In this document: positions 31,492 to 37,444 of the stretch, in pieces
How positions within the stretch are numbered: position 1 is the first letter of the stretch
How the letters are laid out: every line of letters starts with the position of its first letter
NCBI RefSeq assembly: GCF_003334815.1
Contig: NZ_QOWO01000005.1
Length of the DNA: 64,000 bases
Source: Escherichia coli
Lineage (GTDB): Bacteria; Pseudomonadota; Gammaproteobacteria; Enterobacterales; Enterobacteriaceae
Strand: one strand, 5' to 3'
Position numbers and translations under genes: made by a program
Notes under the pieces: model-generated
The model's input: the letters and a program-made list of their open reading frames with translations, nothing else
What the model was told of the DNA's origin: nothing
The model's database searches: none

Positions 31492-31790
31492 CGAGATTGT
31501 TGTCGGATGCGACGCTATGCGTCTTATCCGACCTACAGTTCAGTTCACCCCGTAGGCCTGATAAGTCGCGTCAGCGGCGCATCAGGCATCGGTTGTCGGA
31601 TGCGACGCTATGCGTCTTATCCGACCTACAGTTCAGTGCACCCCGTAGGCCTGATAAGTCACGTCAGCGGCGCATCAGGCATCGGTTGTCGGATGCGACG
31701 CCATCCGTCTTATCCGACCTACAGTTCAGTGCACCTCGTAGGCCTGATAAGTCGCGTCAGCGACGCATCAGGCATCGGCTGTCGAATACA
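31492..31790. repeat. Tandem BIME array: three ~93-bp units each carrying two REPs, filling the prpB-prpC intergenic region
   Basis: Unit tgtcggatgcgacgctatgcgtcttatccgacctacagttcagtgcaccccgtaggcctgataagtcgcgtcagcggcgcatcaggcatcggt repeated at about 31501, 31594 and 31687 with a few substitutions. Confidence 0.85.
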
Positions 31791-35728: not shown

Positions 35729-35974
35729 CTACGTAATCAACCTGATTTGCCGAATCACGGCCATCGGCGATGATAGCCCCCGTAATGCGTGGTCCTTATT
35801 TCCGATAAGTTTACTTGAGTCTTTAGCTTCCCATTTCAGCCCACTCTCCCCTGTGTGGGCTTTTTTCATTGGTCTGCCCCATCCTGAATAGCCAAACAAT
35901 GGCAATGTTCCACTTTGCAGGGATGATAATAAGGGGATCTGATTCAGAAGAGTTTTGAAAAGTTGGACCGCCAT
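35729..35974 (-). CDS. yahM: Small hypothetical protein YahM (coding status doubtful)
   Basis: 81-aa ORF MAVQLFKTLLNQIPLL...; its ATG lies inside the 3' acceptor strand of a tRNA-like sequence, so it may be a spurious ORF. Confidence 0.45.
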   Translation of the reverse strand: MAVQLFKTLLNQIPLLSSLQSGTLPLFGYSGWGRPMKKAHTGESGLKWEAKDSSKLIGNKDHALRGLSSPMAVIRQIRLIT

Positions 35975-36044
35975 CGAGGCCTCGAACCCCGTACCATACA
36001 ACAATCCTGGTTGTCGTCTGCTCTTCCTGATGAGCTAATGGCGG
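35964..36044 (-). other. tRNA-like element (probable pseudo-tRNA / tRNA relic) with encoded CCA
   Basis: Minus strand: ccgccat|ta|gctc|atcaggaa|gagc|agacg|acaac|caggatt|gttgt|atggta|cgggg|ttcgagg|cctcg|atggcgg|t|cca. Perfect 7-bp acceptor stem, D-arm with GG, T-arm with TTCGAGG loop, discriminator and CCA; the anticodon region is non-canonical (28 nt between arms, loop lacks U33). Confidence 0.5.
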
Positions 36045-36386
36045 TTTTTGATATGAGCCTTACAGCATATTTTCTGTCAGGCTTGAGTGCGATGCGTAAG
36101 ATACAGAAAAGACCCCACGCAAACATGATGGAATTATGATTTTTTTCATATGAATGTCAACCAACACATTCACAAAACATCTGCATGAGATCATTTTTTA
36201 TACACCGCATGGCTGCGAAACCACTACTGGTGCTTTTTTAAGCGAAGTGTCGCCGATCACAACAAAATATCGGCGAAAAAAGAGATGGAATGCCAGTTGG
36301 CATACAGATATACAGATGAAATGATTACCTGCATTGCGATTCACTCTCAGGTGGAATAACAACTTGCAGGTGGAACCCTTTCTGAA

Positions 36387-37202
36387 CTAAAGAGTGTAGC
36401 GGATTTTAACGTGCTTATTTACAGGATAATATCTGTCACCTAATTCCTGCACTCTATTAGATATCCATTCATTTAATCGCGCATCATCTCTGTATGTTTT
36501 TACGTCCAGAACAGAGAGCAATAACATCACCAGTGATTCAGGAAAAACAGGGTAGATATTTTTTAAGTGTAATAATAATCCATGCGCAAGCGCCTGCTTA
36601 ATGGGCGCGTCTGTCTCCGGAATAGACGACATTTCGCGAAGCCATTTTTCCACATGCATACACTCTTTCCCTTTAGGGAAAATTCTCAGCAAAGGCATAT
36701 GGTATTCAAGAAGAATACATTTGCAATCTGTTCGCACTGAATCGATAAACTGCACTAATTTCTTAAGCCCGGTAAAGCGTCCAGCCTGCACGTTTGCTTT
36801 AATATCAAGAAACGCATCATCCTGGTCATATACCCAAACTGTCCCTTTTTGATTTTCAAGTATGTGAAAAACAAACTTAACCGGGTGATCAGGGTAATCC
36901 ATCCAGTCATAAAATCCAGGGAAATCATTAAACTGCACATTTATGGTGAGTGCGTTATCGTCTGACCACTCACAGTCTCGTACGGCAGCCATGAGATGAA
37001 TGAGTTTGTCGTCATCGACTAAATCATCACGACAATCATAAGGATAATCATAATATTGTTTAATCAAAACCTTGAATATATCGACACAGGAAACCAGGGA
37101 GCTTTTGATATCCTCTGGTAACTGATTGTTTTTAACCGTATTAAGTATGCTTTGTTGCGTATATGGCATCAAATTATTGTGCGGAGCTTTTAATGATATC
37201 AT
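36387..37202 (-). CDS. yahL: Uncharacterised protein YahL
   Basis: 271-aa ORF MISLKAPHNNLMPYTQQSILNTVKNNQLPEDIK...; AT-rich gene; synteny between yahK and yahM. Confidence 0.8.
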   Translation of the reverse strand: MISLKAPHNNLMPYTQQSILNTVKNNQLPEDIKSSLVSCVDIFKVLIKQYYDYPYDCRDDLVDDDKLIHLMAAVRDCEWSDDNALTINVQFNDFPGFYDWMDYPDHPVKFVFHILENQKGTVWVYDQDDAFLDIKANVQAGRFTGLKKLVQFIDSVRTDCKCILLEYHMPLLRIFPKGKECMHVEKWLREMSSIPETDAPIKQALAHGLLLHLKNIYPVFPESLVMLLLSVLDVKTYRDDARLNEWISNRVQELGDRYYPVNKHVKIRYTL

Positions 37203-37369
37203 CGCGATCTCTCTTAAATAAAAATAAACGTCGCAGATAATAAAGCTCTGATTAAACCAGGCACTATCAGAAATCGCTCATAACTAACGTGTGAAGTATT
37301 GTGTACTGGAGGGCGTTAATTTAACAATTTAAATTTACGTTATAGGTTTTACTGCTACTTTGATATTAT

Positions 37370-37407
37370 TTCGCTCTCCTTAACTAAAAAGTTAAGTGGA
37401 GAGCGAA
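37370..37407 (-). terminator. Bulged stem-loop between yahK and yahL (possible yahK terminator or yahL regulatory hairpin)
   Basis: ttcgctctccttaact-aaaa-agttaagTGgagagcgaa: 10-bp and 6-bp perfect stems with a 2-nt bulge. Confidence 0.3.
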
Positions 37408-37444
37408 GTTAATATGTTAAACCACAAGGTATTTATTAATTTTT

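Follow-up and report, generated by a model that had tools for sequence, protein, structure and literature searches.

What is the tRNA-like sequence that overlaps the start of yahM in Escherichia coli: the decayed remnant of a tRNA gene, or an RNA gene in its own right? The question is raised by a stretch of 64,000 nucleotides (nt) of E. coli contig NZ_QOWO01000005.1 (assembly GCF_003334815.1), here called the window, in which positions 35964 to 36044, read on the minus strand, outline a complete tRNA with an encoded CCA. An earlier reading of the letters alone (the sequence-only reading) took this element for a decayed tRNA and a mark of an old integration site. The comparisons reported here favor another answer: 35964..36044 (-) is probably a functional, non-decoding, tRNA-shaped RNA gene that, to judge from its relatives, came from a lambdoid phage. 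Its parts are as follows.

35964..36044, minus strand: proposed tRNA-shaped RNA gene, 81 nt, with encoded CCA (sequence, ARAGORN, fold, family covariance model)
36044-36038, minus strand: acceptor stem, 5' strand (sequence)
36035-36020, minus strand: D arm (sequence)
36017-35998, minus strand: central hairpin, 7 base pairs (bp), loop CCAGGA (minimum-energy fold)
35991-35975, minus strand: T arm, loop TTCGAGG (sequence)
35974-35968, minus strand: acceptor stem, 3' strand (sequence)
35967, then 35966-35964, minus strand: discriminator T, then CCA (sequence)

From 36044 onward the element reads CCGCCAT-TA-GCTC-ATCAGGAA-GAGC, followed by 28 nt and then, down to 35964, by CGGGG-TTCGAGG-CCTCG-ATGGCGG-T-CCA. 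ARAGORN calls a tRNA at exactly these coordinates, labeled tRNA-Ser (gga), as its sole tRNA call in the window, where it found no tmRNA. Minimum-energy folding of the RNA gives a cloverleaf (acceptor stem of 7 bp, D stem of 4 bp, T arm and central hairpin; -29 kcal/mol, z=-1.9, with z=-1.1 for a canonical phage tRNA as control), so that the tRNA fold with encoded CCA drawn in the sequence-only reading is borne out. The element has the body of a tRNA, with a 7-bp acceptor stem, a D arm with G18G19, a T arm of the T54-Psi55-C56-R57-A58 pattern and the 3' CCA, and the nucleotides of the tRNA elbow (U8, A14, G18G19, A21 and T-loop UUCGA) are all present. The minus strand is the only one that the predicted G-U pairs and the putative promoter described below fit. 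RNA annotation at the locus was absent from the RefSeq E. coli genomes among the matches listed, which carry only yahM, yahN or hypothetical proteins.

The center of the element departs from a tRNA. The interval between D and T arms measures 28 nt, the length given before, five nt rather than one lie between the D stem and the hairpin, and the fold places ACGACAA-CCAGGA-UUGUUGU (7 bp, 6-nt loop) in the position of the anticodon arm. In the alternative 5-bp reading, the one adopted earlier, the loop is CAGGAUU with A at position 33 and U at position 37, so that U33 is indeed missing; an anticodon arm with 5-bp stem and 7-nt loop carrying U33 and a purine at 37 was not found in the element. The Rfam tRNA model (RF00005) gave no match to it at the gathering threshold (29 bits) nor at E<=10 on 211 nt, and the Rfam search at either setting returned no tmRNA or other relevant family; as a control, the canonical argN gene of phage 933W scores 54.8 bits, and the non-canonical relatives introduced below (classes A and B) are unscored too. 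Of the tRNA finders proposed as a check, ARAGORN thus recognizes the element and Infernal with the Rfam tRNA model does not. The element cannot work as a canonical decoder, and the earlier judgment that it is not a working tRNA agrees with both its anticodon arm and the silence of Rfam; because a 7-bp hairpin with a 6-nt loop replaces the anticodon arm, it is not expected to read codons.

The locus was compared by megablast with complete E. coli genomes and by sensitive blastn with phage genomes, which returned 247 records, mostly Stx2 phages. The counterpart in 933W is argN, a canonical tRNA-Arg(UCG) of 77 nt and the middle gene of ileZ-argN-argO, a cluster that lies between Q/pR' and stx and has a putative promoter of its own (pT). 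Acceptor stem (CCGCCAT/ATGGCGG), D stem, T arm, discriminator U and CCA are common to the window element and 933W argN, as are the spacer CATATCA and, it appears, the slot after ileZ; the two are ~75% identical over 88-92 nt. argN differs in its canonical 5-bp anticodon stem, loop CUUCGAA, 9-nt D loop and Rfam score; in the window element the D loop has 8 nt and the hairpin is not that of an anticodon, and the element is not scored by Rfam and stands alone in the chromosome. Homologs lie between ileZ-type and Arg or Thr tRNA genes in 933W, phiP27, mEp460, plasmid pHX138 ('tRNA-OTHER') and a Salmonella plasmid. The argN slot of phiP27, mEp460 and pHX138 is filled by an element of 80-81 nt that has the 'GAGCAGACGACA...TTGTTG' center of the window element and, like it, a D loop of 8 nt; these middle elements are unannotated or 'tRNA-OTHER', and Rfam does not score them. 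The E. coli megablast gave one plasmid copy (85% identical, annotated 'tRNA-OTHER', between tRNA-Ile and tRNA-Arg). A scan of IMG/VR with the pattern CCGCCAYTAGCTYATCRGGAAGAGC found more than 120 contigs among the matches listed, all of the non-canonical form.

Two classes of non-canonical relatives were distinguished. Class A is the phiP27/mEp460 type (phiP27, mEp460, pHX138.261ft_1 and Yersinia phages YeP1-3), with which the window element shares the 8-nt D loop and the start of the central region, 'AGACGACA' after GAGC. Class B, from enterobacterial prophages and plasmids, measures 73-78 nt and has the form GAGC-G-[G/A]CAAC-(4-6 variable nt)-GTTGT-AGTA-T arm; the window element shares with it the T-loop TTCGAGG and the loop allele CAGGAT, the latter also seen in L166, Cedecea, Lelliottia and Enterobacter. 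A query with class B against isolated phage genomes returned canonical relatives only; class B occurs chiefly in prophages and plasmids. Family members usually have a tRNA(CAU) gene 2 nt before them and a tRNA-Thr(UGU), tRNA-Arg(UCU) or tRNA-Gly(UCC) gene 2 nt after. Identity between the window element and its relatives in the two classes is 81-86%. The phage relatives agree with it in the acceptor, D and T arms (5' CCGCCAYTAGCTYATCRGGAAGAGC together with the 3' T arm, acceptor and CCA), and its odd central hairpin, based on CAAC/GTTG with a short variable loop in place of the anticodon arm, is the norm of the family. A covariance model built from 29 non-Escherichia members finds it at full length, as a single match in the window at 35964..36044 (-), with 76 bits and E=7.7e-18, which puts the likeness far beyond chance; the central pairs of the model do not align with the element, whose register there differs from that of class B. 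Unlike both classes, the window element lacks flanking tRNA genes and has a central 28 nt specific to Escherichia (7-bp stem, loop CCAGGA, 6-nt variable region), which was not seen among the matches listed (~240 viral contigs, two scans). Many E. coli genomes have prophage copies that share the arms, in up to three places per genome.

When the 2.4-kb locus was searched against phages, the 81-nt element alone proved phage-like. Under sensitive settings the homology runs from 36068 at most to 35964, ending exactly at the CCA in at least 139 alignments; a match of yahN to a 1.6-kb 'Salmonella phage' fragment was taken to be host DNA and set aside. Because the homology is full-length, includes the upstream spacer and ends at the CCA, the element would be a phage cargo gene rather than an att duplicate. 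The tRNA fragment expected of an att site was not found, as the homologous unit is full-length and its relatives are late-region cargo genes, and the ORF (open reading frame) listing and RefSeq annotation show no integrase among the neighbors (yahO, yahN, yahM, yahL and yahK). The horizontal acquisition suspected in the sequence-only reading therefore holds for the element, which has phage relatives, and the old integration site does not, since those relatives are cargo of late-operon tRNA clusters in lambdoid phages and not att-site duplications. The proposed search for a parent isoacceptor in E. coli led to phage argN-slot genes and to no host parent; the element thus appears to descend from a phage cargo gene of the argN-slot family.

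Several observations concern the phage copies themselves. Many canonical-type argN copies (loop CTTCGAA; e.g., 17+13+8 copies) have an A6-A67 acceptor mismatch and a T-stem mismatch, and canonical argN appears often to be decaying in prophages. In the commonest class A variant (mEp460 type; L004 2508-2588 and ~60 similar viral contigs) the T-loop is lost, with GGGGGCGGGTCCCC for GGGGTTCGAGTCCTC; in contrast to class B and the Escherichia element, the sub-lineage has the look of a genuine pseudogene. The late operon of Salmonella phage L starts with a 'tRNA-Leu (UAA)' (PMC8022706), and ARAGORN labels 73-nt class B elements tRNA-Leu (UAA) likewise; the phage L gene may be a member of the non-decoding family. 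The Rfam small RNA family STnc100 was found downstream of the phage tRNA clusters of 933W (L002 4084-4289 (+), 208 bits) and of a Salmonella plasmid-borne prophage (L005 3483-3680 (+), 89 bits). No paper describing the E. coli element or a non-canonical phage tRNA-like family was found in the literature on the locus and on lambdoid and other phage tRNAs.

Is the element, then, a dead remnant of such a cluster? A scan of a genome collection found the family in 31 species, all Enterobacteriaceae except for two oddly labeled records. The element is identical to the window at 81 of 81 nt in E. albertii, in Escherichia sp. E1V33 and in a divergent 'E. coli' species representative, a lineage 88% identical to the window over kilobases. 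Identities to the window are given below segment by segment, for E. albertii / E1V33 / the divergent lineage.

36260-36183, upstream segment: 0.36 / 0.38 / 0.66
36182-36127, promoter region: 0.80 / 0.91 / 0.95
36126-36045, leader: 0.87 / 0.82 / 0.89
36044-35964, element: 1.00 / 1.00 / 1.00
35963-35880, segment after the CCA: 0.35 / 0.34 / 0.82, not alignable in two of the three

For one lineage at ~15% divergence, a figure taken from the adjacent promoter and leader, which are probably constrained themselves, 81 unchanged sites have a chance of 0.85^81 ~ 2e-6 (hand arithmetic). Because the element is unchanged where the leader is 0.82-0.89, the upstream segment 0.36-0.66 and the segment after the CCA 0.34-0.82 identical, strong purifying selection on a minus-strand RNA structure in Escherichia is indicated. 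Conversion from prophage copies explains the identity poorly, because the central 28 nt were unseen among the viral matches listed. Within the species, the element occurs in 5,169 of 5,426 complete E. coli genomes and is 100% identical in 4,822 of 5,171 records; of 5,109 records for the 81 nt that follow, 3,592 are identical. A variant in O157:H7 turns the G-U pair of the T stem into G-C (U->C), and another strain has two changed bases, both in the hairpin loop; both variants preserve the structure.

A comparison of leader and element across the E. coli population was rejected as confounded, since none of the ten other E. coli compared shares the alleles of the window: at 36116 and 36159 the window reads C and T, and the ten others all read T and G. 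A leader at least 99% identical to that of the window occurs in one of 5,169 E. coli records, and a 601-bp query of the region found none at 100%. The window differs here from the common K-12 sequence.

The family as a whole was examined in 47 distinct sequences. In the acceptor, D, T and (class B) central stems 93.7% of cells are paired, as against 34-52% with slid partners. At acceptor pair 7:66 the search pattern permitted all four combinations, yet every sequence has either C-G (32) or U-A (15); T-stem pair 52:62 is seen as G-C, G-U and A-U. The loop varies freely in length (3-7 nt) and sequence, as does the discriminator base (A/U/C), and the 'anticodons' that ARAGORN assigns are assorted, of two or three bases. 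The excess of pairing over slid partners and the exceptionless covariation at 7:66 argue that the RNA structure of the family is under selection.

Two further groups of chromosomal loci allow the element to be compared with real tRNA genes beside it. Enterobacter mori, Lelliottia nimipressuralis and Enterobacter genomosp. O have a common chromosomal, non-phage context, in the order fimY-like gene, argU/fimU-type tRNA-Arg(UCU), spacer, promoter-like TTGCAT-17-TATCAT, a clearly decayed ileZ, the tRNA-like gene, tRNA-Thr(UGU), CPBP protease, UilS-type lactonase, ABC transporter and yahO. In an alignment of the three, invariant columns were counted.

tRNA-Arg: 77/77
spacer: 53/90
decayed ileZ: 58/81, with a 13-nt deletion in one species
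tRNA-like gene: 74/74
tRNA-Thr: 76/76

Eight Buttiauxella species have a syntenic locus with flanks 77-88% identical, consisting of a conserved TTGCAT-17-TATTAT promoter, a leader of ~80 nt, the tRNA-like gene and tRNA-Gly(UCC). The leader is scrambled past alignment, with a 35-nt deletion in B. brennerae; the tRNA-like gene has invariant arms and a species-specific loop (CTCAGT, CACAGT, CATAG, AGCAGT or CGCAGT). The tRNA-Gly gene is gone from B. agrestis and B. warmboldiae, and the tRNA-like gene is intact in both. The -10 hexamer stands 88 nt from the element in E. coli and 87 nt in Enterobacter, and in Buttiauxella the promoter lies equally far away. Three lineages thus keep one architecture, and in each the tRNA-like gene appears to behave as a selected gene. 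Solo chromosomal copies with other central regions were also seen, in Citrobacter youngae, Klebsiella oxytoca, Cedecea, Pluralibacter and Salmonella diarizonae; their forms include one of 65 nt nearly without a hairpin, one of 75 nt with a GTAC tetraloop and one of 80 nt with a long AT-rich hairpin.

These results bear on the strongest of the rival explanations, namely that of the sequence-only reading: a dead pseudo-tRNA left by a lost lambdoid prophage or integration, with no present function. The clear phage origin fits it, as do the non-canonical anticodon arm with its want of a Rfam score, the loss or decay of the element's phage-cluster neighbors, the visible degeneration of many phage copies of the argN slot and the AT-rich, variably present yahL nearby. 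A neutral relic, however, should not be 81/81 identical in Escherichia lineages whose flanks are 34-89% identical, nor invariant in two other genera while adjacent true tRNA genes and spacers decay, nor covary at acceptor pair 7:66 with zero exceptions; the homology of a full-length gene ending at the CCA rather than of a 3' tRNA fragment, and the conserved, active promoter upstream, speak against it as well. We give this explanation a slim chance.

That promoter and the leader behind it were located as follows.

36133..36160, minus strand: sigma-70 promoter-like site, TTGACA-16 nt-CATAAT (promoter scan, 11/12 consensus matches)
36045..36126, minus strand: 5' leader, ~82 nt, at the presumed position of phage ileZ (position, fold)

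The position of the promoter puts the transcription start near 36126. The other three Escherichia lineages (E. albertii, E1V33 and the divergent one) share the -35 hexamer without change and keep the -10. A Reg-Seq preprint reports an active yahM promoter and transcription start site with repression by IHF, giving no coordinates in its text (10.1101/2025.05.13.653802), and in a library of clinical E. coli enriched for small RNAs yahM was among the differentially expressed small transcripts (10.1101/2019.12.16.878389); both reports are consistent with a small stable RNA from the locus. The leader folds into two hairpins (-25 kcal/mol, z=-4.0), and its recognizable phage likeness is confined to the last ~11 nt (spacer CATATCAAAAA), the phage homology reaching 36055-36068 only as an extension of the tRNA-like match. 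A recognizable decayed ileZ in the leader was considered and rejected: MAFFT alignments were suggestive but unstable, and local alignment against shuffles gave p~0.77-1.0. What would place the window element in the argN slot is the promoter distance of 88 nt and the spacer remnant; no flanking tRNA is recognizable. Within the otherwise variable leader, a block of 17 nt (TATCTTACGCATCGCAC, 36086-36102 (-)) is near-invariant in four Escherichia lineages, perhaps as a binding site for a protein or as a seed for pairing. An ORF of 60 amino acids (aa) at 35944-36126 (-) has its ATG at the inferred transcription start and crosses the tRNA-like gene in another frame; it is not conserved, with a stop at codon 4 in E. 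albertii.

The standing of yahM was weighed as well.

35729..35974, minus strand: annotated yahM ORF, 81 aa (ORF list)
35838..35866, plus strand: rho-independent terminator-like hairpin of the convergent yahN, AGCCCAC...GTGGGCT + TTTTTT (fold; -13.3 kcal/mol, z=-3.6)

The yahM ATG (35974..35972) consists of the first three bases of the 3' acceptor strand, the overlap to which the sequence-only reading had drawn attention, and a GAGG lies 5 nt upstream of it within the T arm and acceptor stem; both ATG and GAGG 'Shine-Dalgarno' are plain tRNA acceptor and T-loop sequence, and the ATG is found in the 3' acceptor strand of every family member with a T7-A66 acceptor pair. The ORF that starts from this ATG varies in length as follows.

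some E. coli: 81 aa
O157:H7: 11 aa
divergent Escherichia lineage: 11 aa
E1V33: 17 aa, with most of yahM deleted
E. albertii: 31 aa
two frameshifted E. coli strains: 45 and 49 aa

YahM homologs were found in Escherichia/Shigella only, many of them truncated; 'divergent' homologs (59-65% identity), which might have indicated a conserved protein, turned out to be frameshift products of DNA 94-98.6% identical to the window, and RefSeq flags yahM as 'frameshifted' in the complete genomes L249 and L250. Neither NCBIfam nor PHROGs has a match for YahM or YahL. The only well-conserved patch of yahM between E. coli and E. albertii (~35866-35800) contains the yahN terminator read backwards, which the pattern scan missed, we think, owing to its 10-nt loop. 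With an ORF not kept at orthologous loci, no wider homologs and no family model, yahM does not look like a protein gene. The doubt cast on it earlier is strengthened by the ORFs of 11-49 aa in O157:H7, E. albertii, E1V33, the divergent lineage and the frameshifted strains; most likely yahM is the trailer of the RNA gene and not a conserved protein gene.

The same data weigh on a second explanation, under which the element is a cis-regulatory leader of yahM whose fold hides the GAGG and ATG, or directs RNase P cleavage, and so controls YahM synthesis. The spacing of GAGG and ATG within the T arm and acceptor stem, the place of the element in a yahM 5' leader behind a real promoter and the condition-responsive levels of the yahM transcript would suit it. 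It is nevertheless very unlikely, as the ORF to be regulated has 11-31 aa in O157:H7, E. albertii, E1V33 and the divergent lineage, the element persists in E1V33 after most of yahM has been lost, and family members elsewhere precede tRNA genes or unrelated sequence.

Still less can be said for a genuine decoding tRNA, either tRNA-Ser(GGA) or a doublet or frameshift decoder with a short anticodon loop. The ARAGORN call, the intact tRNA body and CCA and the assorted ARAGORN 'anticodons' of the family could be read in its favor. SerRS needs a long variable arm, which is absent from the element; A33, U37, the five-nt gap between D stem and hairpin and the 7-bp hairpin with 6-nt loop argue against any decoder, free variation of loop length, loop sequence and discriminator is incompatible with a fixed decoding identity, and the Rfam tRNA model is silent on an element whose canonical 933W counterpart it scores well. 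We give this explanation almost no credence. That the element acts as DNA, e.g., as an integrase attB target kept uniform by repeated replacement from mobile copies, deserves as little, for although tRNA-like sequences are common integration targets and arm-sharing prophage copies are present in many E. coli, the central 28 nt were unseen among the viral matches listed (~240 contigs), the phage copies lie in a late-operon cargo cluster and not beside integrases, and a partial match to the 601-bp region was obtained in only ~10 of 5175 E. coli records.

Under the preferred explanation, a functional, non-decoding RNA gene of phage origin, the element would derive from the middle 'argN' slot of a phage late-region cluster ileZ-argN-argO, whose own promoter was probably fixed in the Escherichia chromosome along with it; the upstream ileZ slot would have decayed into the ~82-nt leader, and the downstream tRNA would have been lost. 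Transcription would proceed from the predicted sigma-70 promoter at 36160-36133, starting at ~36126, and would be followed by an RNase P cut at 36044 and trimming to the encoded CCA, steps suggested by the intact 12-bp stack of acceptor and T stems, T-loop UUCGA, G18G19, U8, A14 and A21. The product would be an L-shaped RNA of 81 nt with a 7-bp hairpin and 6-nt loop in place of the anticodon arm. Because it could not read codons, it would have to act through its tRNA body. By occupying proteins that bind tRNA, it may be a decoy or competitor for nucleases or toxins directed at tRNA, or for tRNA-processing enzymes, a suggestion that we regard as tentative and rather doubtful; it is prompted by the inability to decode, by the varying discriminator (A/U/C), which argues against a conserved aminoacylation identity, and by phage neighbors, notably tRNA-Thr(UGU), that resemble tRNAs countering tRNA-cleaving defenses (PMC12445682, PMC10264068, PMC11555353, PMC12409363).

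A number of points weigh against this explanation. The decoy step is the least supported part of the mechanism and a guess, and the stable ~81-nt RNA and its processing by RNase P are deduced from sequence. The Rfam tRNA model gives the element no score, its fold z-score (-1.9) is modest, and a pattern scan found no intrinsic terminator after the CCA. About 5% of complete E. coli genomes are without the locus, so that it is dispensable, and E. coli HS was reported to lack yahM (PMC7649339). Because the search pattern fixed the 5' 25 nt of the family, ascertainment accounts for part of the invariance of the 5' half, and few independent events underlie the covariation. Clear decay marks many phage copies (e.g., the mEp460 type, with destroyed T-loop), so that not all family members are functional.

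The element can be set beside several known systems. The att-site pseudo-tRNAs of E. coli K-12 (ptwF at CP4-6, pawZ at CPS-53) are partial 3' duplicates of host tRNAs that arose by integration; the window element is like them a tRNA-derived sequence tied to horizontally acquired DNA, and unlike them a full-length phage-type cargo gene with its own promoter and without a host parent. Phage tRNAs are known to evade or replace tRNAs cut by defense nucleases (PMC10264068), including evasion of a retron (PMC11555353), and related cases are the anticodon-arm amputation by P2 OLD (PMC12445682) and PARIS AriB (PMC12409363). The clusters of such anti-defense tRNAs include tRNA-Thr(UGU), which directly adjoins class B elements, and their resistance is achieved by altered or shortened anticodon arms; unlike these tRNAs, which decode and restore translation, the window element cannot decode, and its link to defense is a hypothesis. 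The CNG motif of P2 OLD was not found by eye in the stem of the element's hairpin. Other tRNA-like non-coding RNAs comprise the tRNA-like domain of tmRNA, YrlA and the stable RNAs C and D of phage T4. The window element resembles these in putting a tRNA-shaped body to non-decoding use; it has no sequence or Rfam relationship to them and is a complete cloverleaf minus a proper anticodon loop.

Upstream of the locus, yahL (~36373-37440) is AT-rich (guanine-plus-cytosine content 0.33-0.42) and is absent from some E. coli (yahM adjoins yahK in L249-L251), from E. albertii and from E1V33. The horizontally acquired patch that had been suspected there agrees with this composition and variable presence; its boundary, however, lies at ~36373, ~330 bp upstream of the tRNA-like gene and not at the element. 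Elsewhere in the window, Rfam naRNA4 (RF02564) scored above gathering at five sites (4404-4481 (-), 6511-6586 (+), 6610-6687 (+), 26705-26781 (-) and 31555-31626 (-)), which we take to be repetitive extragenic palindrome (REP)-derived nucleoid-associated RNA repeats.

Phage tRNA genes and tRNA-like non-coding RNAs are known kinds; what is new is the E. coli element. It appears to be an unannotated RNA gene in the best-annotated genome, that of E. coli K-12, lying under a probably spurious y-gene ORF, and in the comparisons made here it is as invariant as the true tRNA genes adjoining its relatives. Three genera independently retain the promoter and the tRNA-like gene amid decaying real tRNA genes; because the element is kept while neighboring tRNA genes decay, a tRNA body without an anticodon would seem to have a selectable function. 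For practical annotation, yahM is due for re-evaluation; annotation that relies on ARAGORN could introduce a false tRNA-Ser, and tRNAscan/PGAP annotates no RNA at the locus. A bolder view, which we hold to be unlikely though worth stating, is that lambdoid prophages and the chromosomes of Escherichia, Enterobacter/Lelliottia and Buttiauxella carry an unrecognized class of anticodon-less tRNA mimics, processed like tRNAs and serving as decoy or immunity RNAs against the tRNA-directed nucleases of defense systems, colicins and contact-dependent inhibition (CDI) toxins, with the fast-evolving hairpin as specificity determinant. If this were true, E. coli K-12 would have one such mimic, unannotated and named yahM. 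The finding bears on why phages carry tRNA clusters and on how tRNA-targeting immunity and toxins may be countered, and the tractable host makes the element directly testable.

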